From positions 1 to 64,000 of the forward strand of contig CBDEUK010000001.1 of the NCBI GenBank assembly GCA_965243205.1: a stretch of DNA of 64,000 nucleotides, given 5' to 3'. The stretch is from Gammaproteobacteria bacterium. Lineage in GTDB: Bacteria; Pseudomonadota; Gammaproteobacteria; Eutrophobiales; Eutrophobiaceae. Each line of letters begins with the position of its first letter. Positions within the stretch are counted from its first letter, which is position 1. Shown piece after piece: positions 15,720-64,000 of the stretch. Under the pieces are notes generated by a model. That model was not told where the DNA came from and searched no databases. It saw only the letters and a program-made list of their open reading frames with translations. The translations under genes and the position numbers were made by a program.

Positions 15720-15769
15720 GTGAGGTTTCTCCAAAATTCACATCAAAAAAAATGGGACGGGGGTATTTT

Positions 15770-16140: not shown

Positions 16141-16245
16141 TAAGCTATAGCCTCCGATTCCAAAATGTAAAAAGTGGCTCGATTCGTGCCAATGCGCCCT
16201 GGCTGGTGTGTTTTTTCGGGTTTTCATTTTAAGGGGTCACAGGGG

Positions 16246-26425: not shown

Positions 26426-26693
26426 GGCTTCTAAGGCTTAACGTGTTTTCAGTTTTAACGTGATGCGGCTTGTGATTATCGGTTCTTCCATTACCATGCC
26501 CCTTCTCTCCAGTTTTTAATTTTCCATCGTTTTCATTGCGAATACGTTCGGCTATTTCTTCACGATGCACGGGCACTTCTTTTGGTGCGTCAACACCAAT
26601 GCGCACCTGGTTGCCTCGAATAGCTAATACAGTGACGTTTATATCATCACCAATACAAAGTGTTTCGCCTGTTCGTCTAGTTAATATCAGCAT
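26415..26693 (-). CDS. csrA: Phage-encoded CsrA/RsmA RNA-binding protein with C-terminal extension
   Basis: [44 protein letters not shown]. Confidence 0.93.
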
Positions 26694-29670: not shown

Positions 29671-29753
29671 TGTTACATTCTGTTACTATATGTAACATTA
29701 TGTTACTAATCTGTTACTACACTGTCAACATTTTTTTGACTACAATCTGTTAC
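29671..29753. promoter_or_regulatory. Operator array (TGTTAC repeats) and leftward early promoter
   Basis: TGTTAC at 29671, 29681, 29701, 29712, 29748 and TGTAAC at 29691; minus-strand TTGACA(29728)-17-TAACAT. Confidence 0.75.
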
Positions 29754-30745: not shown

Positions 30746-32950
30746 TTACAAAACAACTTGTGGCTGTAATAGGTACTCAGGATGGATAGGGTTTTGCGCT
30801 GTCCCTAAACCGCCATTACCATTATAACCACAAGCATCAGAGTGACCATCATCATAAAGAACTTGTAGTGCGGTGTATTGGTTATGGCCATTAATGACAT
30901 AATCCGTAATGGTTCCACTAATACCAATTATTTTTGTGAATACATTTCTAGCAACGGCGTCGCCTAAACTTAACTGCCCATAACCGTTATAACCTGCAGC
31001 AAATAAATCATTGCCTGCCTTCACAATCGTTGAAGAATAATTGACATTTCCTCCGATCCGAATGGAATCAATGCTTCCTTGAAAATCACCAGCAGGTGTT
31101 ATTAAAGAAGTTTGGTTCGCAGTAGCACCCGAACCTAATTGACCTTGTCCATTATAACCACAAGCTCTTAACTCATTCGTATCAGTGAGAGCGTATAATG
31201 AGCCGTAATAACCATCAAACAAATCAATATGCGTGAATACCTCTGGAGATGTTATATTTAAAAAAGAAGTTAACTGCGTTAGGTTACCATGACCTAGCTG
31301 ACCATAATTATTAGAGCCAACCGTCCAAATAACTCCACTGGTATCTAATGTGGCACCCCATCCGTTACCCCCAGCTCCTGCAGTGGTATATCCAGCCGCG
31401 CACTTGATATCAGCAACATTATCTTGAGTTGGATGGTTAACAGGAGAGTTGCGTTGAGTTGTATCACCCATGCCTAATTGTCCATTAGCGTTATAACCCC
31501 ATACCCATAAGTCATTGTTACTATCAATCGCGTAACAAAAATGTGGCAAACCCGAACAAACTAACTTAGTAATACCACTAAGCTCAGGAATTTTTTCAGG
31601 CGTAGTTCTATTGATGGCATCCCCTAAGCCTAAATTCCCTTGCCCATTATAGCCTGTAGCATAAACATCTCCTGTATCAGAGATAAAATAGGTGCATGAA
31701 TAACCAAAGCCATGATAGTTATTAGGCGAACAAATCACATCAACAATATTAATGCTATTTGTAAAAAAATATTCTATTCGAGTAGCCACGTACTTTGAGG
31801 CAGTATCACCATGCCCTAAGTTACCAGCTGCGTTGTGTCCCCATGAATAAACATTGCCGTCTGCAGCGATAGCAAAACCCTGGAAATAACCGCCTATATA
31901 TTTAGATATAACTCCAGGGTTGGTATTAAAATTAATTCTTCGAAATTTATATGCATTATTACCCGTTGGATTACCGGCCCACGGCCCTTGATTATTAGAG
32001 TAACCACAAGCTTTTAAGACATTGTTTGCTAAAAGAACACCGCTTTGGCCAGAACCGAAATTGCGAACAATTTGCACAACTTTCCTATCATTAGGTATGT
32101 CGCTAACACTACCTAATTGATCGGTGCCAAACAAAATAGTGCTAGATAACCTTTCGTCAGTAATCTCGTTATTAGTGATTGTGCTTTGTCCTGGCGCCAA
32201 AGAAACTTTACATAAAGGTCGTCGACCTGATGGAATGCTCGGCGGCTGTGGCGACGCCGCTTCGTTACCAGAGCGAACTTCAATTGCACCAGTAGCAATA
32301 ACTAAAACAACACGATCAATACGAGGATTAGTGGTTGGCGCAGTAATAATAGAAGTATTTTGCGCATCGATTTCAGTAACATCACTACCATCCCAAATAG
32401 CACCAGCATCTACACGCACTGTCATATTCAGCGTTGATTGTTCATGGCAAGAAAAAGCACTAGCAGTTCGATCAAGCTTAGGATCCTTACCATGGAAATC
32501 ATAAAAACCAACCTCATCTGTTCCATAATTACGGCTATGCTCTACCCAGTCATTACCAACTCGACGCAAAACAATTTCCTTGTCTAATGCATCAAGAATA
32601 AAATCCTTATTTTTCTTTAACAGTATCTGCCCGTTACCGCCATTCCCGTGAACAACAGTAACGACTTGAGAAATATCTGAAGCTTGCAACGATATCAACT
32701 GCCCTTCCCAAGTGTTCGTTAGCAAAACAGTTGTTAAGTCATCGGCTACAATATCACTCTCAGTGCTAATAGTATGAGTGCCGCCATCGACTGCAGGTAT
32801 AGTGATAGCACCACTTGTTATATTCAAAACACTAACAGCAGAAGAGCCTGGTAACATGGAAGTATGATCGCGCTGCTGTTTAATTAACGGTCTCATTACT
32901 GGATGTTTAATACTTACATTGGTCATTTCACCGGAAGTAGGTAAGGTCAT
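30746..32950 (-). CDS. Tail fibre/receptor-binding protein with RCC1-like beta-propeller
   Basis: NPRIDRVV tail-fibre-type segment; at least 7 repeats of xWGYNxxGQLGxG; last late gene. Confidence 0.75.
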   Translation of the reverse strand: MTLPTSGEMTNVSIKHPVMRPLIKQQRDHTSMLPGSSAVSVLNITSGAITIPAVDGGTHTISTESDIVADDLTTVLLTNTWEGQLISLQASDISQVVTVVHGNGGNGQILLKKNKDFILDALDKEIVLRRVGNDWVEHSRNYGTDEVGFYDFHGKDPKLDRTASAFSCHEQSTLNMTVRVDAGAIWDGSDVTEIDAQNTSIITAPTTNPRIDRVVLVIATGAIEVRSGNEAASPQPPSIPSGRRPLCKVSLAPGQSTITNNEITDERLSSTILFGTDQLGSVSDIPNDRKVVQIVRNFGSGQSGVLLANNVLKACGYSNNQGPWAGNPTGNNAYKFRRINFNTNPGVISKYIGGYFQGFAIAADGNVYSWGHNAAGNLGHGDTASKYVATRIEYFFTNSINIVDVICSPNNYHGFGYSCTYFISDTGDVYATGYNGQGNLGLGDAINRTTPEKIPELSGITKLVCSGLPHFCYAIDSNNDLWVWGYNANGQLGMGDTTQRNSPVNHPTQDNVADIKCAAGYTTAGAGGNGWGATLDTSGVIWTVGSNNYGQLGHGNLTQLTSFLNITSPEVFTHIDLFDGYYGSLYALTDTNELRACGYNGQGQLGSGATANQTSLITPAGDFQGSIDSIRIGGNVNYSSTIVKAGNDLFAAGYNGYGQLSLGDAVARNVFTKIIGISGTITDYVINGHNQYTALQVLYDDGHSDACGYNGNGGLGTAQNPIHPEYLLQPQVVL

Positions 32951-40354: not shown

Positions 40355-40426
40355 ACGCATAAAAAAAGCCGGAGCCCCTTTCGAGGATCCGGCTTTTCGC
40401 TTTAAATACGTTATGCCTTAGTTCAG
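40355..40426 (-). repeat. Duplicated leader/terminator element, copy 1 (before tape measure)
   Basis: Near-identical to 52449-52516; GCCGGA..GAAA..TCCGGC hairpin followed by T-run. Confidence 0.88.
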
Positions 40427-40441
40427 TAAATTATAGCAAGA

Positions 40442-49832: not shown

Positions 49833-52433
49833 TTATATAGCTCTAACGACTCTCGCGCTTGAGCTGTATTGCATGATGGCTGTGTTAGCAGCTTTTAATT
49901 GAGTCGGTGTATGGCACACAACAAATTGGTCGCCATAAGCTTCTTTCTCGCCTGTGAAATCGCCATTTGCATCGCGAGCGTCTTGCAGTTGACCCATTTG
50001 CCAAGGTTTCATCATGCGGAACCTAGTAGTGTTACGTTCGCCGATCACTAAGTAACGATCACCCATGTGCAAGCCAGGCGCGTTCGATTCAAAGATAGGT
50101 ACGCCTTTTACCTTACCCAATGAACCCATTTCATTTAGGCTGGTGCCAGCTCTCGCAAAGTTTGCTGAAAAATCTCGGGCTTGCTCGACCGCCGTTTTAT
50201 AGGTTTCACTCATGATGCCAAGATCAGCGTTGTAGTAACGTTGGTTTTTGATCATGGATTTACGCAAACCAAGTCGATACAACCATTTACTCCAGTGGTC
50301 TTTAACATCAACTCCACCTGGCAAATCAGTATCAAACGCATAAAGGTTAGTTGCGTATGAATAGCTAACAACGATAGCAGTGGCATTGGCAGGAGTTTGA
50401 ACAACTCCATCTTCGTTAACCACGCTTAGCTCACCTAAGTCATAATCAAGCAAGTAATAATTACCTGCAGCTTGCTCACCAGTACCGTCATACTCAGATA
50501 ACTGTGAACCGCCCACGCTTACCGTCACAGGATTAACCGTATTGCCAACTTGATTACCTTTAAGATCAAACTCACTGCGAGGACGAACAACAGGGAAGTT
50601 ATCAAGGAGAAAAACATTATTGGTGCCGTTAACGTCGCCGCCAATGGCTTCGTTGGTAACAGCAACCGCTTGAAACTCTAGACACGCTTTCAAAATTTCA
50701 TTCATGATGATGTCTTCGAGATCTTCACGAATAATACGGATTGCATTTAAAGCGTTCTCTTGAACGATATCCCAGTTATAAATACTGGCTGCGGTCAAAT
50801 AACGAAGTTCATCAGAAATCTTGAAAGATAACTTTTGAGGGATTGGACGCGCTTCTTCACTGGTTTGAATCATGCCGCTTCGTTTAATGCCCTGCCCTTC
50901 ATACTTGCGGACTTTTCCTTTGCCAGCAGCAGAGGTGTCGCGATAAGAATAAGGAAGGTTTGCAATCGCATTAAAAGGGTATGTGCCAATATTAACAAAC
51001 CTTAATGCGTTAAGATCGTATAAGGCTTCACGAATAACGGTACGTTCGAAAATAGCTGGCACATCAACATCTGGTGTTTGAGCTTGGCCTCCAGCCAATG
51101 CAACAGCCTCTTCATGCAGTCGACCTGCATTTTCGGCGTCATACATAGCGACAGAACCTTCAACAAGATTGCGAACTTCAGGAGAAACGTTATCCATATC
51201 GCGCGCGCTTAAGCCTAAACGCCGGTCTGTAGTTTCTTGTAGTTCACGAATCGCATTTGAATCATCAATACTGATATGAGTATTTCCGTGAGGGCCGTTA
51301 AAACCTCGGTCAGCCAACTGCTGTGTTACTGACAATTGATTAGCAATCTTTAATTGGCTCTCTGCAAATTTCTTGACTTGTTCCTCAGTCATATCAGCAG
51401 TAATAAGATCGCTATCATTTAGCATGGCTTGATTTTCTTCACTCAAAGAAGTGAAGGTATCCGACGCACTTAATGTGTCGCTAAACAATTGCACATTGGC
51501 GTCTAAACGTTCCTGAGCTTGATCAGCTTCTGCAGCGGCTCGATTACGTTCATCTTCCATGAGTTGAAGAACTTCTTCTTGAGACAGGCCAGTCGTAACA
51601 GATAGATTGATAGGCTGACTAGGGTCGACAGAGCCTTCATTGATTTGCTCGGCAAGCAATAAGGCTGACTCTTCGATTGAATCTGCTAACGCTTGTGCCT
51701 GAGCTTCTTCAGTAAAGCCACTGCATTTGTTGATGAACTGATCGCAAAGTTTCTTAATCAGATCCTCGGATAAACCTTTAGCCCGCAGATTCTCTGCCAG
51801 CTTTTTGCGAATAATTTCCCACATCTTAGTAATCTCCTCTGAGAGAGCAATTTTAAATTGAGGCGAAACAGCGTATTCATCACCTTCTTCAAACTCGAAG
51901 CCGATGTTTTCTGAAAGACCTACCTCATCAGGATTAATAGGATCTAAACGTTTGACGCGGGGACGTATCGTTAACGCTGCGCCAACCAGTAAAGTGCCTT
52001 TTTTATCTTCGGTTTCGGGGTCTTTGTAGTCGTTGATAAACTCGACAGAGAAATAACGGAAGCCTTTATTGTGAATGGCATCTACGCCCAGCGCAGTCCA
52101 TTCAATATCACCGAATAATTTATTTCCGCTTCGAATATGCAGCTTATTAATGAACCCAGCGGCACCGTGCATGTCGCTATGAGAGATATTGATCGCAATA
52201 CGCTGACCATAAACATCTTCATTAAAGTTCTTAACCATTTCGCGCAGCATCGCGCGATCGATTTTTAACTCGCCATAAAACGGATCATCGGGATAAGTAA
52301 AAACACGAGTCAACATCACAGTACTGGTCTTACTGCCTTCGGCAAGGTCAACACGATCGGTGTACAAACGAATTGCATCACCCGCATAGTCTTCGAGACA
52401 GATTACCACTTGTGCTAAATGTGACTTGGTCAC
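49833..52433 (-). CDS. Fused prohead protease/scaffold/major capsid protein
   Basis: Mu gpI-like H..AAG..IEWT..G..FRYFSVEF..GAALTIRP; acidic scaffold-like middle; capsid-like C-terminus; no other MCP candidate. Confidence 0.8.
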   Translation of the reverse strand: MTKSHLAQVVICLEDYAGDAIRLYTDRVDLAEGSKTSTVMLTRVFTYPDDPFYGELKIDRAMLREMVKNFNEDVYGQRIAINISHSDMHGAAGFINKLHIRSGNKLFGDIEWTALGVDAIHNKGFRYFSVEFINDYKDPETEDKKGTLLVGAALTIRPRVKRLDPINPDEVGLSENIGFEFEEGDEYAVSPQFKIALSEEITKMWEIIRKKLAENLRAKGLSEDLIKKLCDQFINKCSGFTEEAQAQALADSIEESALLLAEQINEGSVDPSQPINLSVTTGLSQEEVLQLMEDERNRAAAEADQAQERLDANVQLFSDTLSASDTFTSLSEENQAMLNDSDLITADMTEEQVKKFAESQLKIANQLSVTQQLADRGFNGPHGNTHISIDDSNAIRELQETTDRRLGLSARDMDNVSPEVRNLVEGSVAMYDAENAGRLHEEAVALAGGQAQTPDVDVPAIFERTVIREALYDLNALRFVNIGTYPFNAIANLPYSYRDTSAAGKGKVRKYEGQGIKRSGMIQTSEEARPIPQKLSFKISDELRYLTAASIYNWDIVQENALNAIRIIREDLEDIIMNEILKACLEFQAVAVTNEAIGGDVNGTNNVFLLDNFPVVRPRSEFDLKGNQVGNTVNPVTVSVGGSQLSEYDGTGEQAAGNYYLLDYDLGELSVVNEDGVVQTPANATAIVVSYSYATNLYAFDTDLPGGVDVKDHWSKWLYRLGLRKSMIKNQRYYNADLGIMSETYKTAVEQARDFSANFARAGTSLNEMGSLGKVKGVPIFESNAPGLHMGDRYLVIGERNTTRFRMMKPWQMGQLQDARDANGDFTGEKEAYGDQFVVCHTPTQLKAANTAIMQYSSSARVVRAI

Positions 52434-52448: not shown

Positions 52449-52516
52449 ACGCAAAAAAGCCGGAGCCTCTTTCGAGGATCCGGCTTTTCGCTTGAATACG
52501 TTATGCCTTAGTTCAG
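52449..52516 (-). repeat. Duplicated leader/terminator element, copy 2 (before capsid gene)
   Basis: Near-identical to 40355-40426. Confidence 0.88.
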
Positions 52517-52538
52517 ATTAAATAATTAGCTTATTTGA

Positions 52539-52769
52539 TTAAGAAGTCAAGGGTTCTATCTTAATCTGTAGAGCTTTCTTTATGCGAGACTTATACTTTT
52601 CACACATGCTTTCATAGCTCTCAAGAATTTCGTCCTCATCATCAATATTTATAAATACATGAAATATATTTTCTTGCGTTTGATTAGAAGGGTTATAATT
52701 AATCAGATAAGTCGCTCCGTTCTGAACGACCCAAAAGCTAACAACAACATTATATCCGTCTATATTCAT
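52539..52769 (-). CDS. Hypothetical protein
   Basis: ATGA overlap with the upstream zinc-finger gene at 52766-52769. Confidence 0.5.
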   Translation of the reverse strand: MNIDGYNVVVSFWVVQNGATYLINYNPSNQTQENIFHVFINIDDEDEILESYESMCEKYKSRIKKALQIKIEPLTS

Positions 52770-52957
52770 AATGGCTGATATTGTAATGGAACTGTCACCC
52801 ATTTAGTACAACGACATTTAGCATTAGCTTGTCCATCAGGGTTAATACGAATTACTCGGGACTTAACCACTATGCCGTCAAATAATTCCCTATCACAATA
52901 AGGGCAATTAACTTTTGGTCTTGGGCCTGACTCAATTAGATTATTCACCGTCGTCAT
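52766..52957 (-). CDS. Small zinc-finger protein (Mu Com-like)
   Basis: VNCPYCDRELF..AKCRCTKW; GGAGG upstream of ATG at 52957. Confidence 0.6.
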   Translation of the reverse strand: MTTVNNLIESGPRPKVNCPYCDRELFDGIVVKSRVIRINPDGQANAKCRCTKWVTVPLQYQPL

Positions 52958-53081
52958 CAACTTCCTCCAAATCACCTTCTACTTCACCAACTTCTTGCAA
53001 ATAAGCAAGCTCGGCGTTATCTCTTGTCAAACCAAACGCTTTCATGAGTTCGTTTATACGTTTTTCTTTTTCTTCGATCAT
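52941..53081 (-). CDS. 46-aa acidic protein, candidate MuF immunity protein
   Basis: MIEEKEKRINELMKAFGLTRDNAELAYLQEVGEVEGDLEEVDDDGE; ATGA overlap with the MuF stop; not in the ORF track. Confidence 0.55.
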   Translation of the reverse strand: MIEEKEKRINELMKAFGLTRDNAELAYLQEVGEVEGDLEEVDDDGE

Positions 53082-54829
53082 TTTAGCCATCCTTTTTTTA
53101 TAAAAAGCCTATCCATTGCATCGGCAATTGGTTGAAAATCATCTTCATCCCATTGGGTCATAATAGGGATAGGGCTGCGCTTTCTTGCGTCTATCTCAGC
53201 TTTTGTTTGTTCTAACAAAAACTCATCCCCTGAGCGAATTGCGATGTATTGAGAATAGCTCCGCGCCCATAATTCCTCGGTCTCCAAAAGATATTTTAAA
53301 TGCTTTTTAGGTACTGTTAAGCCATCAATTCTCCGAGGCCCCCGAAATAAACTAACTAGCCCTTTGATCGCTTTAGATTTCGCAACCGATTCTCTCCAGT
53401 CATTAAAATCGCTGTCATGCGTAGAAGAGAAGTCTTTTGACCCAAAAGCTTGATGATCAATAAAATGGCCTATCTCATGAACTAAAGTAAGCTCCTTATG
53501 TTCGCCGGAACTTCTTATTTCAATATCGATAGCTCTTCCATTCGTCATATATCGGTAACTACCAAAAGATTTACGTTTTCGAGATTTAACAATTTCAATA
53601 ACCGGTAAATCACCATCACCATGAACACTGTCAATAGCCTTAAGAACTCTGTCCGTTTCACGCTTAAAAGCCTTTGCCTGCAGTGCCCCAGAAACTGGAG
53701 CTCCAAGAGTCGCAAATGTTTTAGGTTGCGCCAAATCTAAAGGCACTGGTGCGACATTAAGATTATTAGTGTTAATGCCTTTTTTCTCAAAACGGACTTT
53801 TAAAATTTTCCACGGCGTGGTTATTTGATTTGTTTTAAGTAAACCAGCCTCAAGCGCTGCGCGTTTTTTTCTACCAAGTATTTGCTCTTGTGTAGTACCA
53901 GATTGCCGTTTTAACCAAGCAATAGGATCTTCTTTAGTTTTACGATCGATATCATCTACTTCGTCAGTAAAAACAACTTCGATAAAGCTTAAGGTATTCG
54001 GGTGAGCGGGATAAGGGTTTTTGCCTTTAGGGTAAACGCCATTACCTAAACCATAACGATTTATGTTCGCATGCATGTCACATATATCTGGACGTGGGTG
54101 TAAATGTGATAATAAAAAACGTGTGCCAGCTGTATCATCTAATTCAAACACTGACTCTTCATAGGCTTTGTTATGTGCTCGGTTTATTTCAGTACGAAAC
54201 ACACGCAAAACATTATTGTATGGATTACCCTCACCGGTCATTAATAGCTTGCCAACTTCATCAGCAATGCTTGAAGATTTAGCTTTTTTTAATTTTTGTT
54301 GAACATCAAAAGGAATAGACTCCCCGCGACTTAAAAAACTTTGCGCAGCTTCGCTAGCAGAGGTGCCTTGTATAACGGCAGATTGAATTGCCGTTCCAAT
54401 AATCTCTCGTGCATGATTATCAATACGCCATAAACGATCGGATAACTGTAAACCATCATCAGCAATAAAATTTTGCACAAATAAAACAGCGTCTTCAGCA
54501 ATGCCTCCAAGATCAACATTTATCGGCTCATCAATGACAGGCTCAACTCCTAACCTAGCCGCGGCAACCATCTTATCTGTTAAAAGTTCGTTACGTGAAA
54601 CGTATAACTGATTTAATCTGGAATTAACATTGTTAAGCAGCTGCTGCAGCTGCTCGCGTCGCACCGTATCACCGGCGGATTCAATTTGTTGTTTTATATC
54701 GTCGCGCGCCTGTTCATAAGAGCGAGCGAGTTCGTTGATAGTGTCAGAATCAAGTTGATCAATTTGATCTTGAGCAAATTGAGAAGCGCGTTTTATTTTT
54801 GCTTTTCTAGCTGTCGGCCCGCTTTCCAT
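53078..54829 (-). CDS. Head morphogenesis protein (MuF/SPP1 gp7-like) with C-terminal HExxH metallopeptidase-like domain
   Basis: LSDRLW, RVFRTEINRA, DICD, PAHPN; LVHEIGH..EELWARSY; start probably MESG at 54829. Confidence 0.8.
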   Translation of the reverse strand: MESGPTARKAKIKRASQFAQDQIDQLDSDTINELARSYEQARDDIKQQIESAGDTVRREQLQQLLNNVNSRLNQLYVSRNELLTDKMVAAARLGVEPVIDEPINVDLGGIAEDAVLFVQNFIADDGLQLSDRLWRIDNHAREIIGTAIQSAVIQGTSASEAAQSFLSRGESIPFDVQQKLKKAKSSSIADEVGKLLMTGEGNPYNNVLRVFRTEINRAHNKAYEESVFELDDTAGTRFLLSHLHPRPDICDMHANINRYGLGNGVYPKGKNPYPAHPNTLSFIEVVFTDEVDDIDRKTKEDPIAWLKRQSGTTQEQILGRKKRAALEAGLLKTNQITTPWKILKVRFEKKGINTNNLNVAPVPLDLAQPKTFATLGAPVSGALQAKAFKRETDRVLKAIDSVHGDGDLPVIEIVKSRKRKSFGSYRYMTNGRAIDIEIRSSGEHKELTLVHEIGHFIDHQAFGSKDFSSTHDSDFNDWRESVAKSKAIKGLVSLFRGPRRIDGLTVPKKHLKYLLETEELWARSYSQYIAIRSGDEFLLEQTKAEIDARKRSPIPIMTQWDEDDFQPIADAMDRLFIKKGWLK

Positions 54830-54857
54830 GAGCACAACAGCCGCATGACCGTACAAG

Positions 54858-55103
54858 CTAATGACTAAAGCTATTATTAGAAAACACGCAAAGCTCTTCA
54901 GCCATTTCAGGGTTTTCTGCAATTGACTTAAAAGTCTTGTCTATATTCAAAATAGATTCCTGTCTGTGCTTCCTAACCTCATTAAAGGCATCTAAAATTT
55001 CTTGTTTCATTTCAGGAATCATTAAATCAGGCTGTTCACTAAGGATACTTAAATATTGTGATAAAGCCTTTTCGCATATATTCAATGTTCTATCGGTTAT
55101 CAT
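54858..55103 (-). CDS. Phage hypothetical protein
   Basis: AGGAG RBS; between portal and MuF. Confidence 0.55.
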   Translation of the reverse strand: MITDRTLNICEKALSQYLSILSEQPDLMIPEMKQEILDAFNEVRKHRQESILNIDKTFKSIAENPEMAEELCVFSNNSFSH

Positions 55104-55111
55104 ATTAACTC

Positions 55112-56494
55112 CTATTTATTACTCACATCGGTCGCACTTTCTTTTTTCTTCGCGTTCCCTGGTGTTATTTTCACACTACGCGACCCAATTCCGTCTTCAT
55201 AAGTTGGGTAAGGATCTCCCCCTTCGAGCTCATCTGTCAAACGTTGCTTTTCTTTAGCTGGAACAAGTCCCATAGTTTCAAAAACAGTGGTTTTACTTGC
55301 GCCGCCCGCTTGCTGTTTCAAGGCTCTGTCGGTTGCCTGGTTAAGAGTTTCAGTAACTCGTTCGTTAAACTCAACTTTTACACCATGATTACGTGGATCA
55401 ATATTGTTTAACAACAACTCAAGCTCAAAACCTTCTTGATAAACTGCAGACAGCTCGTCTTGCATGGAATCCACTTCTTCAAAAAAATCACGTTTCATGT
55501 CTTCTAGTACATCACGCGAAATATTTTGCGCGTAACCAAACAAGGCCTTTGGAGCAGGCGCACCAGTAAAAAAAGTATCAACTAAATAAAGAACATCGTT
55601 TATCTGATCTAAGTTTTCATCGCCTTGTAATGCGCCTACAGCACCTTTTTTATTTAGAAAATAATCGAGATCAATAGCTTGAGTTTTTCTTCTCTGTTCG
55701 ACGTCGTTTTTGTAGGCTTCCAATTCTGCTTCAGTAGCTCCTTCAAGCACATGAACTTTTTGAGATGGAGCTCTGTCGTGTCTTCGAATAACTAAATCTT
55801 CATCCGTCAAAGTCATTTTCTTAAATATTGTCATTGCTGCATCGAGCATCGGTCTACCCATGCAACCTAAATCATCATAGTTATCTGGATCCAGCCTACC
55901 GTGAGATATTTGCCATAAAGGAAAAGAAGCTATCTTCTCGCTAGTCATAGCATCTAGTTGATGGTAAGCAGTTTGTATGTCTTTAAATATGCCATTCTCA
56001 CTCACATCAGGAATCATTGTTTCGCTGGGCATGCGCACCGCATTCCATATTTTATTATCTGCGCCTAAAACCCACTGCAAAAACAAATTGCCTTCCTTTA
56101 TGTAGCCACTAGCATCAGACATAAGTTTGGCTCTGTTACCAAGGCCTAGTCGATATGAAAAGTCATCCCAAATTTTTAATACTCGTTTATTATTGTCTTT
56201 AACGTTGCAACGTAATCCTGACTTTGTCATAACAGTACTAGTTTTTCTGTGAATCCGTTTGCAACGCGGATCCTTCCGGTCCATATCTCTAATAGACAAA
56301 ACAATATTACGAAAATTAGAATCGACCCAAAGGAGACGATATAAATACTGCATTCGATTTTCAGGATTTGGACGGTAACCAAGTTCGCCAGGTAAGTTAT
56401 TAACCTGGTTAGAAATCTTTGAGTCACTAATGGACTTATTACCAACTTTAAACAGCTCTCTTAACTGTCGAAATTGAGAAGAATAACTTTTCAT
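55112..56494 (-). CDS. Portal protein
   Basis: 460 aa after terL; EGNLFL, GRPMLD, EDLVIRR..RAP, PKALFG. Confidence 0.8.
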   Translation of the reverse strand: MKSYSSQFRQLRELFKVGNKSISDSKISNQVNNLPGELGYRPNPENRMQYLYRLLWVDSNFRNIVLSIRDMDRKDPRCKRIHRKTSTVMTKSGLRCNVKDNNKRVLKIWDDFSYRLGLGNRAKLMSDASGYIKEGNLFLQWVLGADNKIWNAVRMPSETMIPDVSENGIFKDIQTAYHQLDAMTSEKIASFPLWQISHGRLDPDNYDDLGCMGRPMLDAAMTIFKKMTLTDEDLVIRRHDRAPSQKVHVLEGATEAELEAYKNDVEQRRKTQAIDLDYFLNKKGAVGALQGDENLDQINDVLYLVDTFFTGAPAPKALFGYAQNISRDVLEDMKRDFFEEVDSMQDELSAVYQEGFELELLLNNIDPRNHGVKVEFNERVTETLNQATDRALKQQAGGASKTTVFETMGLVPAKEKQRLTDELEGGDPYPTYEDGIGSRSVKITPGNAKKKESATDVSNK

Positions 56495-56497: not shown

Positions 56498-58096
56498 TTA
56501 CCCCGTACCGGCGTTTGGTAAAGCCGGTGTTTTTTCAATCATATTTTCTCGTGTAGTACTACTATTTAAGATCACAGTTTGAATTGTAGCAATACCACGA
56601 GTATATAAAGCCCAGTAAGCGACAATGAAGGCATCAAACAAATCATCGCCAACTTTTGAATTTACCATCTTATAACTTGCATAAGTTGCTTTTGTTTCTT
56701 CAGCTCTAATATTAGCCAATTGTCTAACCAATAACACTAACCCAGATAAAGCTGGATCGTTTGCATGAAAATCTTCAAAGTATGGAATCGCAATTTGTCT
56801 ATTACGGAATGCCTGGCTAGCAACAACTGCCATAGAATGTTTTTGCATACCTTGAAACTGCACAGGAGAAAAAGCCCACTCATTCCATGAACTAGCGGTG
56901 CTATTACCATCATTTATAGCTTGGCGATTGATGTTAATTAAATTTTCATTGAACAAAACATCATTAACATGCCCGATTAAACCTATGCCAAAGGCATCGC
57001 CCATACCGTAATCTGGATTAAAATATCGCCACAACTCAACCAAATCTCTTTCAATAACCGCCTCATCTGTACCAGGTGGCCATGTGCGCGCATAGATAAC
57101 ACAAGTAAAACTTCCTAGTTGCTCTAAAATAATAACGGCTGATTTAGATGACTCTGGTTTTTCACCATGCCCTGTATGGTCATAACCAATTGAAATAAGT
57201 CCTCGTTTTTTATACTTCACACCTGGCAATGGTTCTGCGAGCTGTATATCAGCCATTAAACCAGTCACCATTGCAATACGAATAAACTTCTCCCAAATTA
57301 AATTTCGTGATGTGACATTTTTACAAAGTAGCTGACGAATATATTCTTCTGAGGAAAGTTCTTTACGCATATCTTCCATAAAGTTTTTATGCAGTATCCC
57401 CATCTCTATACCAAGATGAACGTTAACTAATGGCAGCTGACGATATAAACCAGAATCAATTAAACCTTGCAAAGTATCAGCGCCTTTAAAAACGCCAGTA
57501 ATCCGAATTTGAGGCGGCTCATCGGCTGAGCTTTCAATAGCGCCTAATCTTCTTGTTGAGCCCAGCATTAAAAGGAAGCGCGAATACAAGCGATCGCTAG
57601 GCATGTCATCAACTTCTTCTAGTGATGCGCAAGTTAAATCGCCGCCATCCACATTAGCCATGATGCCGTAACAATGCGCACGCGACTGATTTGCAAACAT
57701 ATAGTATGTGTCTGCGATTTGCCTGCGTCCGCCTTTATGATCGATATAAGCCTCTAAAATCTGTGAGCGACGAATAGCATCCAAATGATAATCAAGGTTT
57801 ACCTTAGACTGGGCCTCGCGTGGAGCGACAATCCCTAATGACTGATCGGGCTGCGTTGAATTTTTCTTAAGACAGTACAGTTCTTTTATTGCTGTTTTAC
57901 CCGTCCGCCTACAAGAGTTATCCACGGTGTTAGGGCTTTCGTCCATTTCAATGCACTTAAGGATTTGCATGGGATCTAAGGTCACATTATGGACATACTT
58001 GTGCCACAAAGCATGATCGTGTTTATATTTTTGAACCTCGACTTCAGCAAGGTTACGCATTTCAATTCGTTTGGTACGTGAAATACGATTAGCCAT
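56498..58096 (-). CDS. Terminase large subunit
   Basis: CRRTGKT Walker A, LEEVDD Walker B, IGYD and GDDLFDA RNase H-type nuclease motifs. Confidence 0.85.
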   Translation of the reverse strand: MANRISRTKRIEMRNLAEVEVQKYKHDHALWHKYVHNVTLDPMQILKCIEMDESPNTVDNSCRRTGKTAIKELYCLKKNSTQPDQSLGIVAPREAQSKVNLDYHLDAIRRSQILEAYIDHKGGRRQIADTYYMFANQSRAHCYGIMANVDGGDLTCASLEEVDDMPSDRLYSRFLLMLGSTRRLGAIESSADEPPQIRITGVFKGADTLQGLIDSGLYRQLPLVNVHLGIEMGILHKNFMEDMRKELSSEEYIRQLLCKNVTSRNLIWEKFIRIAMVTGLMADIQLAEPLPGVKYKKRGLISIGYDHTGHGEKPESSKSAVIILEQLGSFTCVIYARTWPPGTDEAVIERDLVELWRYFNPDYGMGDAFGIGLIGHVNDVLFNENLININRQAINDGNSTASSWNEWAFSPVQFQGMQKHSMAVVASQAFRNRQIAIPYFEDFHANDPALSGLVLLVRQLANIRAEETKATYASYKMVNSKVGDDLFDAFIVAYWALYTRGIATIQTVILNSSTTRENMIEKTPALPNAGTG

Positions 58097-59042
58097 TCCC
58101 TTCGCTCTGCTCGTGCTCGATTAATATCGGGTCGTTATTTGTAGCTTCCTGGCTTTTTTTAATCAAAGCTTTCATGTCGTCCATAACGCCTAATGTTTTT
58201 TGACTAAAATCTTCTAATGATTCATTAGCGTTTGGTTTAGCTGCATCAAGAAAACCTTTCATAGCTTCTTGCTCATCCTGAACTTTTGGCGTCATTTCCA
58301 TATCCGCTAAAGTCATAGAGTTTTTATTAATAAAATCGATTAATGGTTTTAGTAGAGGGTGAGCTTTCTTTTCAGTTACTCTAACCATGCGCCCAAGGCC
58401 AGCATCGTAATATGAGACCAACTGAAAGCCTTCGTCCTTAACATAAGTCCATACAGGATCCTCTACTCGTGGCCCGCCATCCTGAGCAATGGTCAAAATC
58501 ATATCGTTTATTAAACCCTGAATAGCCGCTTGAGTATCAGCGCGCAATCCCATCAACATGCTAGGGTCTTTAGTGTCGAAAGCGATATGATGCTTCATGA
58601 ATAATTCGACTCGCTTCAAGCAGGCCACTTCTTGACTGCAAATACTCTCTCTTAATTCACAGCCATCACATTGAGGATATTTGCCAGGTCTGGCGGGAAA
58701 ATAGTCGGCAACCTTTGCATGCAACCCGTGCTTCATAGCATTGAAACGAGTAATCAGAGTTTCCTCTGGAGTAGGATGCCCTTCGAGATTAGCTGCTGAC
58801 GCCGCCTTGCCCGCTACAGTCTTAGGTCCGGTCGCGTGCGCATGAGCTTTTAAAAGGTTTTGATCCCAGTAAGCCTGTTCGCATTGCTCTTTGCATTGAG
58901 GACAATTCCCATAATAGAAATAAGGATGGTAATCCCGTTCGGGATATTCCTCGATAAGATCGGGCTTTTTCTTGAAACTAATTTTGCAGTCAGGACAATA
59001 AAAAGTTACCTGATTACGTACCGAAATGTTAGAATTATCCAT
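58089..59042 (-). CDS. Putative terminase small subunit (Cys-rich)
   Basis: Directly upstream of terL; TGPKT..GK..SA.N and NAMKHGL motifs; CxxC pairs. Confidence 0.65.
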   Translation of the reverse strand: MDNSNISVRNQVTFYCPDCKISFKKKPDLIEEYPERDYHPYFYYGNCPQCKEQCEQAYWDQNLLKAHAHATGPKTVAGKAASAANLEGHPTPEETLITRFNAMKHGLHAKVADYFPARPGKYPQCDGCELRESICSQEVACLKRVELFMKHHIAFDTKDPSMLMGLRADTQAAIQGLINDMILTIAQDGGPRVEDPVWTYVKDEGFQLVSYYDAGLGRMVRVTEKKAHPLLKPLIDFINKNSMTLADMEMTPKVQDEQEAMKGFLDAAKPNANESLEDFSQKTLGVMDDMKALIKKSQEATNNDPILIEHEQSEGNG

Positions 59043-59108
59043 ACCTTAGAGCAGGCGGATACAAATTAACCGGCAAAGGTATAACAATAGATTTTGTTCC
59101 TAGTGTGG

Positions 59109-59124
59109 CTGTCTTGGGGAGCCA
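59109..59124 (+). repeat. attR core CTGTCTTGGGGAGCCA (displaced tRNA-Asn 3' end)
   Basis: 15/16 match to 12720-12735; followed by a terminator; phage genes end here. Confidence 0.88.
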
Positions 59125-59128
59125 AATT

Positions 59129-59165
59129 AAAAAAGGGTTTCATAATGAAACCCTTTCTTGTTTTA
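59129..59165. terminator. Bidirectional intrinsic terminator (original tRNA-Asn terminator)
   Basis: AAAGGGTTTCAT-A-ATGAAACCCTTT with flanking A and T runs. Confidence 0.8.
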
Positions 59166-59224: not shown

Positions 59225-59626
59225 TTAATTATAATTACTAATTGAATCGCAGTATGAGGGTGCAAGCAATAATGTGCTATTTTTATTGAAATTAATTATT
59301 AATAATTCATGATTTTTTGTATATTTTCCTTTCAATAAAGTATCAAACAATCTTGGTTTTAAATATTCATTTTTTAAATGATGTGGAAATTTATATTCAA
59401 AAAGTTTTTTTTCAGCGGTTTTTATCCTAAAACAATCAAAATTAAAAGGGACCTCTTTTTGTTCTCCTGAATTAATAGAATCTAGTTTAACTTTAGAATA
59501 TATAGAAATAATAAAAATTTCTTTATTAGTTTCATTAGCTAAAATTAACTTAGAATTAATGGCACACCCAGACAGTAATATAAATAAAAACCAAATAGAC
59601 ATTAAATGTTTAGCAAATAAATACAT
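59225..59626 (-). CDS. Lipoprotein, putative RHS immunity protein
   Basis: Lipobox LLSGC; very AT-rich; TAATG coupling to the RHS gene. Confidence 0.7.
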   Translation of the reverse strand: MYLFAKHLMSIWFLFILLSGCAINSKLILANETNKEIFIISIYSKVKLDSINSGEQKEVPFNFDCFRIKTAEKKLFEYKFPHHLKNEYLKPRLFDTLLKGKYTKNHELLIINFNKNSTLLLAPSYCDSISNYN

Positions 59627-62600
59627 TAAAACACTGTATCTTGCATCGGCCCTGTTTCCATAAAATTATTTTGATGCCATTTATCAACTGGATGCAATAA
59701 ATCAGGATGTGGTTCTCTAAAAATTGAAGTCATCCCACCAATAATATGAGAAGGGAAATAAGCTGGGCCCAGAATCTGAGATTGTAAGGTATGTCTGAAC
59801 TCCTCACCATAAACTGTAAAATCTGTTGGAGTTTTTAAGAAATGAACATTCGATGAATCAGGTGATACATTCTGTCCATAAATAACAGCATTTCCAAATG
59901 TCATAGCTGTTGCCATCAGTGGATTATTTGTAAATTGCACAGCATTATTCTCAAATGTGATATTAGGATTAGTATTCATTGCTAATCCTACAAGATGACC
60001 AATACCTCCGTAAGTTAAACCTACAATTGTATTTGGCCCTGCCCATATTTTACTAGCAACGTCTAATGATCCTCTAAAAACTTTTCCTTCAAAATTATAA
60101 CCACTATTTGTACCATCTAATTGCAATGTAGAATTATATTTAAATGCTGCATTTGCAAATGAAAATGCGGTAGATGATTTGAAGCCATCTAAGAAGTCAC
60201 CACCTTCTAGCTCCGAACGAGCACCACCAATTGTACCATTAGCCAATACTCTAGAAGCACTCCATGTATTTCCAAAATATGATTTTACTCCGCCTAAAGC
60301 CGCTCCAGATAAACCACCTAATACTCCACTCTCTAAATCTCCACCTGTAATTGCTCCAAACACAAACCCACCTGTTGCGCCACCAATAATATTTGCTACA
60401 GTAAACGCGGCCTCTAAAGTTATTGCACTACCAGATGCAATAGCCCCAGCAGCAAAATCTAATGCTGCATTATAAGCTAACCCTCCCGTATACCATGCAG
60501 TAACGCCTATAACTAATGCATTTATTAATGAGTTCCCTCCTGTAATTTTATTTAATGTGCTATTTATAAAACCAAGAACTCCATCTATCACATCAGTTAC
60601 AAAATCAATTATATCATCCCCGATTGTTACAGCTACAATAGCAGCAGCAATAAGACCAATAATGAAATGCCCGCTTGGATCGGTAAAACTCAACGGATTA
60701 TTATTTACATAAGTGTATCGATTAAAGTTTTGCTGAACTTCTGGGTATTGTATAAATGGATCTGGACTTAAGAAGCGCCCTAAGTCAGGGTCATACACAC
60801 GACCACCCATGTGAATGAGACCCACATCATCTAAGTATTGATGCCCAGTAAAACATCGGTTGGTTTCACTCGAGAACACTTGTGCTATGGCATCATCCCA
60901 GGTCGGTTGACGACGCTTACCATGTGGGTCATAACTTAAACTCTCAGCAACACCTGCCGTCTCATCCGTAATAGCTGTTATCGAACCTAAATGGTCTCGA
61001 TGTAAATAACGCGTCTCTTCTGTATCATTGTTAGTACTCGAAATATCATCAATCGATTTAAACAGGCCAATCGTTTGACCACCCGCTTTTAAATAATGAA
61101 TATAAGTGGTTTTACCTACCTTGCCGTCTATCTCAAACACCGAGTTCACATACGTACGGATTTCAGATGGATTCGAACCATTCGTCACCGTTTGTTGCAC
61201 CATCTCCCGACTCGCACCGTACTTAAACGCAATGTTGGTAGAACCTTGATCGATTTGTAATGGCTTGTTGTAACTGCTCCACGTTATGGTGCGCGTAGCG
61301 CTTGCAGTAAAATTATAGTTTTGTGTGACGTTACCGTTCGCATCATAGAGAACGTTATGACCACCGATCGATGTCACCGCATGTGGACGTGGACCACCAT
61401 AAATATACGTACCACTGACACCCGTCTTAGTTTTAATATTACCTAACGCATCATAGGTGTAGTTTTTTATCGTCCCGTTAAGAACGCTTTGTTTAATACG
61501 ATTCAAATCGTCGTATAAAAAACTTTCTGTATTGGTCTGAGTAATGTCTTCACGTTCAGTTAAGTTACCAATGACATCAAATGTGAACGTTAAGTCTTGA
61601 ATGTTATTGACCAACGCAGGTGAGCTCGTACCAATCGCATTCACCAAACCCGTCTCCGGTGTATACCCCATGTTGGTGATCACACCATTGTCGTATTTTT
61701 GTTTGGTCACCTTACCTTCGGCATCCATCAACATCACGGTGTAATACTCTTCCGTGATGTCATCGGCGTTATAAACCAAATCCAGATAACCGCGTGCATT
61801 GTATTGATGTTTGACTTTCAAACGGCCACTATCATGCGCCCGTTGTGGATAGGTAATGACATCGACTCTGCCTGAACTGTCGTAGGTTTGTTCTTGAACA
61901 TGTGTACCCACCACACCCGTGATGGTGGTTGAGGTCGAACTCAACCGACCGTAACCATCGTACACATAACTCTCATCTTTGCCTTCAGCCGAACTGACAC
62001 TAATGAGTTTGCCAATCGAGTGTGCTGTTTGACCCGCCGCGTAGTTACTGCCACTCGCATAGTCATACACCCATGTTGATGTTCCTTCGGCTTCGACTCT
62101 CTGCGTCATGCGACCTAACTTATCATAGGTCATTGTCACCGTTTGACTCTTTGCATCCGTTTGACTCACCAACTCACCTAAGGCGTTGTAGGTATAACTC
62201 CAGATACCCATATCCGGGTCATCCATACCCGTCTTACGACCGCGTAAGTCATATAGATTCGTCGTTGTGTTGTTATTGCTATCGGTTAGCGTCCTTAAGT
62301 TACCAAAGGGTTCATATTCATAGGTAGCGATATTGTTGAGATTGTCTTCAGTTGATACCAACTGTCCAATCGCATTATTGGTACGAGTATTAGTTTGACT
62401 TAAAAAAACATTGGTCTCGCTGACCGACAAACCGACATAACTCGTAGTAGTTTCAACACCGTTCACATGATCTGGATGCGGCGCGATGCGTTTAACTGAA
62501 CGACCCACCACATCGTATTCAATTGCGTGCCAGTAACTGGTACTACCCGCGTAGTATGGACGAGATTTGGCCACTACTTGACCCAACTGATTGTATTCCG

Positions 62601-63516
62601 TATCAACGTATATCAACGTACCATCAAAGCCTTGGCTTTGAACTCTCAACTCACGACCTAAGGCATCTGAATACGCCACACTAGTTGGAGCACCACTAGC
62701 TTGAGTCGTAACCGATAATGCACCGTTCAATGGACATGCAGTATTGCCACTTTCTCCCTGGAAGCCATGACACCATTCTCGCGTCACGGTGGTCGACGTG
62801 CCATCGGCCCTAACCTCACTCGTTTGACGGCCAAATGAGTCATAAACCCATGTCGTCATTAATTGATTTGGACCTGTTAAGGTCTTCATCACACCAAACT
62901 TCGCATCATAGGTTCGAGTTTCATTGTGGCCCAACGCATTTGTCGTGCTAATTGCAAATTGACCACGCGCATCATACATTGTCGTTGTCGTACGTGATGC
63001 AATAGCAGTAGCTCCGCTTCCACCAGTTACTGTCACACTGGTTTTATTACCAAATGCCACAGTATCGTATCCATAAGTTGTTTCCAGTCGTAATGACGGA
63101 GTGTCAGGTTCGATAATTTCTTTACTTAATAAACCATTTGCGTTGTATTCAAAACTCGATGTACGAGTACCGCAGGTTCCTGTCGTTGGATCAGAATTTG
63201 AACACGTACCGTCTCTCGGATCACCATTGCTTGGTAGATACTGAGTCACCTCGGTTCTTTGCAGCCTATCTAAAAACCATTGAGTTTCATTAGGCGGATA
63301 ATACTGATTAGCCGTATAAGTAGTGTGCGTATCACCATTGCATGTCGTATCTTTACATGTAGTTGAAACCGTAATGGTAGTGGGATTACCGTGATCATCA
63401 TAACTAGTGGTAGTTACCACCTCACTTACTTTGCTACTGGTCGCTGCAAACACTTGCCCTGCAAATAAGAAAAGTAAAGCAATAATAAATTGAGTAACTA
63501 GATTATAGCGTTGCAT
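59626..63516 (-). CDS. RHS/YD-repeat protein with C-terminal toxin-like region and its own signal peptide
   Basis: YD repeats, DHLGS, RVYDPDLGRFLSPDP, NPLSFTDPSG; AAGGAG RBS before MQRYN at 63516. Confidence 0.88.
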   Translation of the reverse strand: MQRYNLVTQFIIALLFLFAGQVFAATSSKVSEVVTTTSYDDHGNPTTITVSTTCKDTTCNGDTHTTYTANQYYPPNETQWFLDRLQRTEVTQYLPSNGDPRDGTCSNSDPTTGTCGTRTSSFEYNANGLLSKEIIEPDTPSLRLETTYGYDTVAFGNKTSVTVTGGSGATAIASRTTTTMYDARGQFAISTTNALGHNETRTYDAKFGVMKTLTGPNQLMTTWVYDSFGRQTSEVRADGTSTTVTREWCHGFQGESGNTACPLNGALSVTTQASGAPTSVAYSDALGRELRVQSQGFDGTLIYVDTEYNQLGQVVAKSRPYYAGSTSYWHAIEYDVVGRSVKRIAPHPDHVNGVETTTSYVGLSVSETNVFLSQTNTRTNNAIGQLVSTEDNLNNIATYEYEPFGNLRTLTDSNNNTTTNLYDLRGRKTGMDDPDMGIWSYTYNALGELVSQTDAKSQTVTMTYDKLGRMTQRVEAEGTSTWVYDYASGSNYAAGQTAHSIGKLISVSSAEGKDESYVYDGYGRLSSTSTTITGVVGTHVQEQTYDSSGRVDVITYPQRAHDSGRLKVKHQYNARGYLDLVYNADDITEEYYTVMLMDAEGKVTKQKYDNGVITNMGYTPETGLVNAIGTSSPALVNNIQDLTFTFDVIGNLTEREDITQTNTESFLYDDLNRIKQSVLNGTIKNYTYDALGNIKTKTGVSGTYIYGGPRPHAVTSIGGHNVLYDANGNVTQNYNFTASATRTITWSSYNKPLQIDQGSTNIAFKYGASREMVQQTVTNGSNPSEIRTYVNSVFEIDGKVGKTTYIHYLKAGGQTIGLFKSIDDISSTNNDTEETRYLHRDHLGSITAITDETAGVAESLSYDPHGKRRQPTWDDAIAQVFSSETNRCFTGHQYLDDVGLIHMGGRVYDPDLGRFLSPDPFIQYPEVQQNFNRYTYVNNNPLSFTDPSGHFIIGLIAAAIVAVTIGDDIIDFVTDVIDGVLGFINSTLNKITGGNSLINALVIGVTAWYTGGLAYNAALDFAAGAIASGSAITLEAAFTVANIIGGATGGFVFGAITGGDLESGVLGGLSGAALGGVKSYFGNTWSASRVLANGTIGGARSELEGGDFLDGFKSSTAFSFANAAFKYNSTLQLDGTNSGYNFEGKVFRGSLDVASKIWAGPNTIVGLTYGGIGHLVGLAMNTNPNITFENNAVQFTNNPLMATAMTFGNAVIYGQNVSPDSSNVHFLKTPTDFTVYGEEFRHTLQSQILGPAYFPSHIIGGMTSIFREPHPDLLHPVDKWHQNNFMETGPMQDTVF

Positions 63517-63634
63517 AGCGTCTCTCCTTAAGACCGGTGCTGTTGCAAATACATTTTTAATAACATTAAATTGAAAAAATGATTGGGCTTTAAAAATCAA
63601 ATCCAGTGTATTAAGTGAGTTCTGTTTCATGACA

Positions 63635-64000
63635 TTAATCCAATTCATAGTCTGTTTTCGTCACACTTGATGCATAGGGAAACAATACACCAGGATGTGG
63701 ATCGTATAATGGTAATGTTGAACTCGTCTTAATCGTCTCAACACCATCCTGCGTCTTCTTATTCGCAAAGGCCGTTATGACTTTACTTAATGGTGCACCG
63801 TCATATTCCTGTTTCGTCTCTTTCACCATACCCACATATGGATAAGCTTGTTCATACGTCGTAGTGGTAATGATGTTGGTATCAACATTAGTACTCGTCA
63901 TTGTTTGAAATCCTAAGAAACCTCTAAAATAAGAACTCTTTGCAATACTATATTGATACGTCGTTTCCGATTGATGAGGAACAATCAAACCACCAGCAAG
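63635..64000 (-). CDS. 3' end of an upstream TcdB-middle/RHS-shell-like gene (partial)
   Basis: Frame open to the window edge; TTYQY..RGFLGF.TMT motif. Confidence 0.7.
   Translation of the reverse strand, partial: LAGGLIVPHQSETTYQYSIAKSSYFRGFLGFQTMTSTNVDTNIITTTTYEQAYPYVGMVKETKQEYDGAPLSKVITAFANKKTQDGVETIKTSSTLPLYDPHPGVLFPYASSVTKTDYELD

Follow-up and report, generated by a model that had tools for sequence, protein, structure and literature searches.

A tRNA-Asn prophage in a gammaproteobacterial genome whose packaging genes may be rejoined to integrase transcription by excision

We analysed the first 64 kb (hereafter the window) of contig 1 (CBDEUK010000001.1) of the 2.79-Mb, two-contig genome of a Gammaproteobacteria bacterium (GCA_965243205.1), which contains a 46.4-kb prophage at approximately 12736-59108, integrated in the 3' end of a tRNA-Asn gene. 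The prophage is bounded by two copies of an attachment (att) core, attL and attR, that share 16 nucleotides (nt) with one mismatch. Because of this mismatch an exact-repeat search missed the core, which we located by eye and from the position of the tRNA gene. Our subject is the joint that excision would make between the two prophage ends: the gene of a large serine integrase (int) runs into attL, and a gene that we call g1 starts just inside attR, upstream of the gene for the large terminase subunit (TerL). The features at the two ends are the following (aa, amino acids).

12660-12735, plus strand: tRNA-Asn (GTT), detected with ARAGORN (Rfam tRNA, 65.7 bits), its 3' end being the attL core
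12720-12735: attL core CTGTCTCGGGGAGCCA, the last 16 nt of tRNA-Asn
12694-14265, minus strand: large serine integrase, prophage form, 523 aa, TTG start, from Pfam matches and translation
56498-58096, minus strand: TerL, 532 aa, from a fold match
58089-59042, minus strand: g1, 317 aa, Cys-rich, family-less, just upstream of TerL
59035-59108, minus strand: phage arm of attR, encoding the circle-form Int tail (26 residues after WLP) in the simulated circle
59109-59124: attR core CTGTCTTGGGGAGCCA, the displaced 3' end of tRNA-Asn, with one mismatch to attL
59124-59156, both strands: tRNA-Asn terminator hairpin (hairpin proper 59132-59156), with T-runs on both strands

Genes between the att copies lie almost all on the minus strand. 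According to Pfam and PHROG matches, int is followed by genes for a XerD-like recombinase, a primase-helicase, methylases, CsrA, a small tyrosine recombinase and CII, and then by Arc-like and repressor-like genes on the plus strand. The remaining minus-strand block (59042 to 30746) is co-oriented and carries packaging, head, lysis and tail signatures in the order g1, the 532-aa protein, portal, head-morphogenesis protein, Mu-like protease fusion, amidase and spanins, ending with tail tube, tape measure, J-like protein and an RCC1-repeat fibre. A first-pass annotation, made from the sequence alone, had placed this late block next to attR, and it does adjoin it, the g1 ATG at 59042 being separated from the core by 66 nt (59043-59108). 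At the other end, the 51,536-nt contigs of two sequencing runs start at window position ~12695, within tRNA-Asn; a branch of the assembly graph at a repeated tRNA probably explains this start, which is not evidence of excision.

The integrase matches Resolvase (PF00239, 7.1e-20), Recombinase (PF07508, 1.1e-22) and Zn_ribbon_recom (PF13408, 4.8e-14), and is a large serine recombinase in which the catalytic, recombinase and zinc-ribbon domains are all present. A VRVSSQKQ motif lies near its N-terminus, and by our own reading its VRVSS appears to sit where the catalytic serine should be. Enzymes of this class use short attP and attB sites with a crossover dinucleotide at the centre and need a separate directionality factor to excise; no such factor was recognised here. 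The int frame is open through the att core, with no stop before it. In the prophage form, the last 10 residues after WLP and the stop are read antisense off tRNA-Asn, and the protein ends in ...WLPETGSNCRPSD followed by the stop. Joining the two prophage ends in silico yielded a circle-form Int of 539 aa instead of 523 aa, ending in ...WLP(E/K)TATLGTKSIVIPLPVNLYPPALRYG and a stop. Integration thus replaces a conserved 26-residue Int tail by 10 residues taken from the tRNA antisense strand.

To place this tail swap in its family we used a scan of one genome per species, which gave 119 relatives among 175 pattern matches; the best 80 loci were kept, 79 of them with an assigned g1 start (individual loci are cited below by L numbers). 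The order g1-TerL-portal recurs in nearly all 80 loci. All of 60 genomes from the window's own family and class lack g1. In 35 of the 79 loci, the 220 nt before g1 contain the sequence TGGCTCC, which encodes WLP and is the reverse complement of the tRNA end. In these 35, and in the window, the frame behind this sequence encodes the conserved tail WLP-x5-L(R/G)T-...-(L/F)P-...-(R/K)(K/R)AA-stop, which is kept as protein also in loci where int and g1 do not overlap. The integrase end was present in four of five lysogen genomes searched, and in all four the prophage lies in tRNA-Asn with the same tail swap, the prophage-form tail reading WLP(G/R/E)TGSN(C/R)RPSD-stop. Across the five lysogens examined (the window at 12694-12735 and L083-L086), the int TAA always comes 13 codons from the start of WLP, in tRNA-Asn antisense. 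By our own reading this stop falls in the anticodon-loop region, so any tRNA-Asn target would give the same short tail.

In the simulated circle the end of int, with its stop TAA at 59037-59035 within ATGGATAA, overlaps the g1 ATG at 59042-59040. The first-pass annotation had predicted this overlap, and the same kind of junction exists in unintegrated relatives, where the int stop lies at -2 (L005), -6 (L011) or +5 (L063) relative to the g1 start; these junctions are the one predicted for the window's circle and are not due to chance. Among the 35 loci with a recognisable core, seven have the int stop within -6 to +5 of g1, as does the window, and in L006 the g1 frame opens right behind the int stop. 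A serine-integrase homologue lies upstream of g1 on the same strand in 9 of the 80 loci. The absence of a good Shine-Dalgarno (SD) sequence at g1, noted earlier, also holds: the start context is CTAAGGTATGGATAA, with AAGG 1 nt before the ATG. No earlier g1 start is possible because an in-frame TAA lies 3 nt upstream of the ATG. In L004 and L005 a GGAGG SD is embedded in the int tail. In the circle, int and g1 would be arranged like the coupled cistrons of one operon. Separately, in L012, L013 and L029 a serine integrase is found directly upstream of g1 on the opposite strand.

We searched the attR side for promoters using an approximate sigma-70 matrix. No 9-of-12 sigma-70 match occurs in 59043-59108, and the best matrix score there (4.3-4.7 bits) is under the window's 99th percentile (5.3). 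The packaging module therefore looks, in silico, as if it had no recognisable promoter at its 5' end, and the earlier assumption that none lies in these 66 nt stands to the extent that no sigma-70-like site stands out in such scans. On the other side of the core, the terminator hairpin has a folding energy of -19.5 kcal/mol on the minus strand, facing g1 (z-score -4.86, 0 of 200 shuffles as good), where it is followed by TTTTTTAATTT, and one of -14.0 kcal/mol on the plus strand (z-score -2.76). Together with the T-runs on both sides, this agrees with the bidirectional terminator shield described in the first-pass annotation. The hairpin is the native, host-derived terminator of the displaced tRNA-Asn end, and the lysogen L003 is flanked by nearly the same one. 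Host genes past the hairpin (an RHS-repeat protein and a 133-aa open reading frame, ORF) are co-directional with g1, and the host terminator would insulate g1 from this RHS operon. These genes occupy 59225-63648 on the minus strand, just outside attR, the RHS-repeat protein having 1340 aa; the 133-aa ORF that comes after it is possibly an immunity gene.

The module behind this terminator, segment 1 (59042-52539, 6.5 kb), leaves by its ORF spacing no intergenic room for a promoter. Its first gene, g1, ends at 58089, overlapping the TerL start at 58096. Homologues of g1 were numerous (621 at E <= 0.001 among 1045 candidates), and searches with it gave no Pfam or PHROG match and no PDB profile match below E 0.024. 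Its structural model (pLDDT 62) gave no fold match, the best Foldseek E-values being 0.21 in the PDB and 0.017 in a viral set (TM-score 0.15), a negative weakened by the low confidence of the model. The name terS used for g1 in the first-pass annotation is a guess from position only, and we treat the gene as an unverified positional TerS candidate. The 532-aa protein likewise had no Pfam, PHROG or PDB sequence match, and its model (pLDDT 80.5) gave 60 Foldseek matches at E <= 0.001, including T4 gp17 (1.7e-15), D6E (1.6e-13), Sf6 gp2 (8.1e-13) and HK97 (1.7e-12). Since the model matches large terminases, we assign the protein, on its predicted ATPase and nuclease fold, as TerL. The rest of segment 1 is made up as follows.

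52539-56494, minus strand: rest of segment 1, tightly packed ORFs
55112-56494, minus strand: portal (Pfam Portal_T4)
between portal and head-morphogenesis gene, minus strand: 81-aa ORF
53078-54922, minus strand: head-morphogenesis protein (PHROG)
in the apparent 102-nt gap 52976-53077, minus strand: small conserved ORF
52766-52975, minus strand: Zn-finger protein p69, 69 aa
3' end of segment 1, minus strand: 87-aa ORF

Transcription that could enter g1 in the circle would come from the other prophage end. Both int and the gene of the XerD-like recombinase (Xer341), which is kept upstream of the serine integrase in relatives, are directed toward attL, and the candidate inputs lie behind them.

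14709-15734, minus strand: XerD-like tyrosine recombinase Xer341, 341 aa (Pfam Phage_integrase, 4.4e-21)
16164-16192, minus strand: candidate promoter TTGGCA-17-TACATT, 12.5 bits, third best on the window's minus strand
29700-29728, minus strand: promoter-like TTGACA-17-TAACAT, 14.3 bits, best on the window's minus strand

A non-coding stretch of 508 nt before the XerD-like gene contains the site at 16192-16164, which the circle places upstream of Xer341, int and g1. Among 14 relatives, 5 have the best site of their whole locus in the region ahead of the Xer341 gene, and in 10 this region contains a site above the 99.9th percentile. The site at 29728-29700 heads the early operon, its neighbours giving Arc-like and repressor PHROG matches and a CII Pfam match. 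With these two candidates upstream, int is more probably the last cistron of an upstream unit than the first late cistron, the role that the first-pass annotation had given it.

Downstream of segment 1, the late block is interrupted by two copies of a conserved module, placed before the protease/capsid gene and before the tape-measure gene.

52453-52550, minus strand: late module 1 (covariance model, 79.5 bits)
52550-52522, minus strand: module 1 promoter TTGACT-17-AATTAT
52516-52496, minus strand: module 1 conserved box CTGAACTAAGGCATAACGTAT
52488-52453, minus strand: module 1 intrinsic terminator, 14 nt before the SD/ATG of the protease/capsid gene (ATG at ~52439)
40361-40438, minus strand: late module 2 (model, 86.4 bits), directly before the tape-measure gene
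40438-40430, minus strand: module 2 extended -10 TGCTATAAT
40426-40406, minus strand: module 2 box, the same as the module 1 box
40397-40361, minus strand: module 2 terminator

A 90-nt stretch with the module 1 terminator folds at -31.4 kcal/mol. The module is kept at nucleotide level in L003, L005, L006, L008 and L010, which differ widely in GC content, and by eye the terminator stems vary between copies with complementarity kept. A covariance model built from seven copies was matched 23 times at E <= 1 across 73 sources, among these matches being the 7 training copies and 4 more at E < 0.01, and within the window it matched only these two copies, with none near int, the Xer341 gene or g1. 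The modules have no match in Rfam. From this layout, the late block is not one operon, and the head-lysis and tail genes have their own predicted promoters in the prophage. The earlier claim that only the circle restores upstream input to the head, lysis and tail genes is not supported in view of the two modules, because of which gating by read-through can cover only the first 6.5 kb. By analogy, the layout suggests control by lambda-Q-like antitermination, or small terminated RNAs; among the 68 ORFs, no Q-family antiterminator was matched in Pfam or PHROG. In the window, L003, L005, L006 and L010, module 1 is immediately preceded by the gene of p69, a conserved Zn-finger protein of 62-69 aa. 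That p69 is the antiterminator we keep as speculation only: it has no family match, and L017 has p69 but no module match. The head gene of L017 is preceded by a stretch that we read as being of the g1-upstream type described next.

Upstream of g1, many relatives carry an element that the window lacks. Aligning 68 distinct upstream sequences on the g1 ATG revealed a CCCC peak at -40 to -37 (C at -38 in 58 of 68), a T-rich stretch at -35 to -30, an A/T-rich stretch at -12 to -7 and GGCAGC at -6 to -1, with no SD. The pattern suggests a late promoter whose transcript would start on the ATG or close to it, so that the g1 mRNA would be leaderless. Roughly half of the relatives in which a g1 start was assigned have this promoter-like element between int and g1 (for example at -44 to +3 of g1 in L021:7927-7973, L022 and L027). 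The g1 upstream of the window scores -3.2 bits for it (training median 18.6), and the element is absent window-wide, the best score of 13.5 bits comparing with a shuffled-window maximum that averages 14.1. It is also absent in L003-L006, L008, L011, L031, L063 and L082 (set A; -17.7 to +6.7 bits), and int abuts g1 in the loci without it. By single-sequence folding, a hairpin often lies at or over the g1 ATG in relatives, with a mean minimum free energy of -7.2 kcal/mol vs -2.8 and -2.1 kcal/mol in flanking controls, and with z < -1.5 in 39% of 66 sequences vs 12% and 0% in controls. A consensus RNA structure for the element was sought and rejected (RNAalifold, 0 pairs in 56 sequences). Before the protease/capsid gene of L021, L036 and L017 lies a stretch that resembles, by eye and unscored, the locus's own g1-upstream motif; a motif before both g1 and a head gene fits a repeated late-promoter motif.

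Taken together, these observations lead us to a reading, with a probability of roughly 45%, in which expression of the packaging module depends on excision. In the excised circle, int and g1 would form one translationally coupled unit, with the int stop 5 nt past the g1 ATG, and the input transcript through int would start either at the candidate promoter before the XerD-like gene or at the early one. Integration would leave the 6.5-kb module (g1, TerL, portal, head-morphogenesis protein and small ORFs) promoterless behind the tRNA terminator, so that it would probably be expressed only when excision rejoins it to int transcription, and there would be no terminase as long as the phage DNA is chromosomal. 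The head-lysis and tail genes would be separate units, each with a sigma-70-type promoter, a box and a terminator, under the lambda-Q-like antitermination suggested above. Of the original proposal that integration cuts the link to the late genes, the separation of int from g1 is retained, and the part concerning head-lysis and tail genes, which keep their own promoters, is given up. The att sites, the exchange of the Int tail, the int-g1 junction of relatives, the lack of their promoter-like element in the window and the two late modules are observed directly; the absence of a cryptic promoter, the transcripts that cross attP (the att site of the circle) and antitermination by the modules are what we infer here.

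Several observations count against this excision-dependent reading. Of the 35 relatives with a recognisable core, 26 have an int that stops 45-113 nt short of g1, and among the 68 g1-upstream sequences 38 exceed 18.9 bits for the promoter-like element, just downstream of attP; with the int stop often distant and the element this common, much of the family would not depend on read-through. The two modules leave roughly three quarters of the late block without a connection to attP. Consensus and position-weight-matrix scans are insensitive, being blind to activator-dependent, alternative-sigma and intragenic promoters, and prophage-wide counts of simple promoter-like matches were no higher than in shuffles (33 vs 49.8, 29 vs 38.1 and 37 vs 36.6), so that such scans weigh little either way. 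Contigs of four DNA-type runs from one sample run through attR without a break, joint or loose end and represent the integrated form only; such contigs say nothing on expression or excision. Finally, relatives have a small helix-turn-helix (HTH) gene, either in the Xer-int interval or immediately ahead of g1, of which 6 tblastn queries detected no homologue in the window (E > 0.1); its absence could also mean regulatory decay. The frequency of the element and the blindness of the scans, along with minus-strand sigma-70-like sites of 9.6-10.4 bits inside segment 1 (at 53790, 53320 and 55240), speak for a packaging module with its own unrecognised promoter, in the 66-nt arm, in g1 or further in, perhaps activator-dependent or read by an alternative sigma factor, the overlap of int and g1 then being compaction with no gating. 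We consider this possible but on the unlikely side, because the element is absent both at the window's g1 and in the set A relatives, the GC-rich arm of L004 offers no A/T-rich stretch usable as a -10, and an abutting stop and start with an embedded SD is an operon-internal layout.

The co-orientation of all genes from 59042 to 30746 and the int stop on the first start codon in the circle would suit the version of the first-pass annotation, in which the whole 28-kb block is one operon fed only across attP with int as first cistron. The modules at 52550-52453 and 40438-40361 make this very improbable, since each combines a promoter with an intrinsic terminator, both are conserved in five relatives, and a transcript from attP would need to pass both terminators. 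That the prophage is decaying or cryptic, having lost the HTH regulator and the g1 element so that the layout is without present function, is in keeping with the missing HTH homologue and with the low-complexity, junk-like ORFs that flank the XerD-like gene. It is nevertheless improbable: the same layout, with no HTH gene and int abutting g1, recurs in the unintegrated relatives L011 and L005 (the latter from a 40.8-kb contig) and among lysogens of other hosts, TerL, portal and g1 have the full length seen in relatives, and the integrase keeps its three domains and the VRVSS motif. The excision-dependent reading could also be widened. If the gated segment encoded an override of the late terminators (p69 or g1, for example), excision would gate the whole head-lysis-tail set through an antitermination cascade, the packaging genes having become wired to the int transcript across attP after promoter loss and the same recombination toggling the Int tail. 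One site would then report the integrated or free state to recombination and morphogenesis alike. We regard this extension as unlikely.

Concerning the HTH gene of relatives, its label as "middle operon regulator" is the depositor's, in MT855965, and an identity with Mor was rejected, as none of six relatives' proteins matched Pfam Mor at E <= 1 and the matches were weak and to generic HTH families only. That record (L001, Microcystis phage vB_MaeS-yong1) is the sole phage record with homologues of both g1 and TerL (38.5% and 56.6% identity). Its serine-integrase module lies elsewhere and its g1 follows SSB. Its assignment to a cyanobacterial host may deserve a second look, the family being otherwise found here in Proteobacteria genomes.

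The region around the XerD-like gene contains a further conserved element, of the following composition.

14329-14505, minus strand: conserved non-coding element downstream of the XerD-like gene, family-wide
14505-14496 and 14440-14431, minus strand: ACGCAGTTCA repeats
14394-14378, minus strand: box1 GGGGTGGGGGCTCGGCA
14351-14329, minus strand: box2 GGTGGGTACC...CTGCAC, 44-45 nt after box1

We also found this element in L001, L005, L011, L019, L021, L033, L036, L039, L045, L048, L052, L061 and L062, as well as in L072-L074, L077, L079 and L081. Its reading frame is inconsistent between loci, with in-frame stops in many. An RNA structure was rejected, there being no consensus structure and no Rfam match, and the element may be a protein-binding site, either an origin or a recombinase site. 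Stretches of ~440 and ~510 nt (14266-14708 and 15738-16245) flank the XerD-like gene and contain only junk-like ORFs of 146 and 171 aa, the translations of which (ORFs 14262-14702 and 15712-16227) are of low complexity and have no family match. A GC hairpin CGCGCGAAAATTTTCGCGCA lies at 14281-14300, 16 nt before the int TTG start. Elsewhere in the prophage, we noted a CsrA homologue as cargo (26415-26693), a second short tyrosine recombinase of 198 aa (27679-28275), the RCC1-repeat tail fibre (30746-32950) and the 866-aa Mu-like protease fusion (49833-52433).

If packaging depends on excision as proposed, the arrangement would be a built-in safeguard against an unexcised prophage cutting and packaging the host chromosome, the opposite of the delayed excision that underlies lateral transduction. 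The family is widespread, with its 621 g1 homologues and with loci in Gamma- and Betaproteobacteria, and it offers a natural comparison between the promoter-like element with leaderless-mRNA geometry and direct int-g1 coupling.

Late control in phage lambda involves Q, the promoter pR', 6S RNA and the terminator tR', in the order promoter, short leader, terminator, late genes, and sib retroregulation lowers Int expression. Modules 1 and 2 resemble pR'-tR' in having a promoter, a short conserved leader, a terminator and late genes in this order, but there are two modules instead of one, and a Q homologue was not found among the 68 ORFs. As with sib, the sequence 3' of int differs between circle and prophage; unlike with sib, it is the downstream genes that would gain expression here. 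The Int of phage Mx8 is a tyrosine recombinase, and we know of no link between the Mx8 arrangement and packaging genes.

In Mx8 (IntP/IntX), the int coding sequence contains attP, and integration gives int a new 3' end (PMC6070905); as in our prophage, the att core is inside the int ORF and the C-terminus is changed by integration (539 vs 523 aa here). The 3' end of the gene for the Dehalococcoides large serine recombinase DsiB always overlaps the att repeat, and the enzyme is, as its authors suggest, possibly fully functional only on the circle (PMC3146451). DsiB elements are genomic islands in the tmRNA gene (ssrA), with a tail reported as divergent and no downstream packaging genes, whereas the tail described here is conserved in 35 loci. 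Transcription units that are formed or restored only by excision are also known from ICEclc, where the circle-specific fusion Pcirc drives the integrase itself (PMC5812530), and from helper-embedded phage-inducible chromosomal islands (HE-PICIs), which interrupt a late gene of the helper phage (PMC10111431).

The closest parallel is Tn916, of which our prophage would be, if the reading holds, the phage counterpart. The conjugation genes of Tn916 are promoterless when integrated and are read after excision from Porf7 across the joint, T1 acting as insulator, and its circle-dependent transcription includes the antiterminator canT (PMC11658703). In both elements the recombinase genes lie at one end and are transcribed outward, promoterless genes lie at the other end behind a blocking terminator, and excision joins the ends, the lack of a promoter being in our case a prediction. 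Tn916 is an integrative and conjugative element with a tyrosine recombinase, and its gated genes serve DNA processing and conjugation, whereas ours is a tailed phage with a serine integrase, a host-derived terminator and an int that overlaps the first putatively gated gene, and is known from sequence alone. The literature that we searched, a limited collection, yielded no phage with packaging or late genes that need excision for their transcription. The combination proposed here is one of Tn916-type gating and of an attP inside int, both known, in a large uncharacterised phage family.

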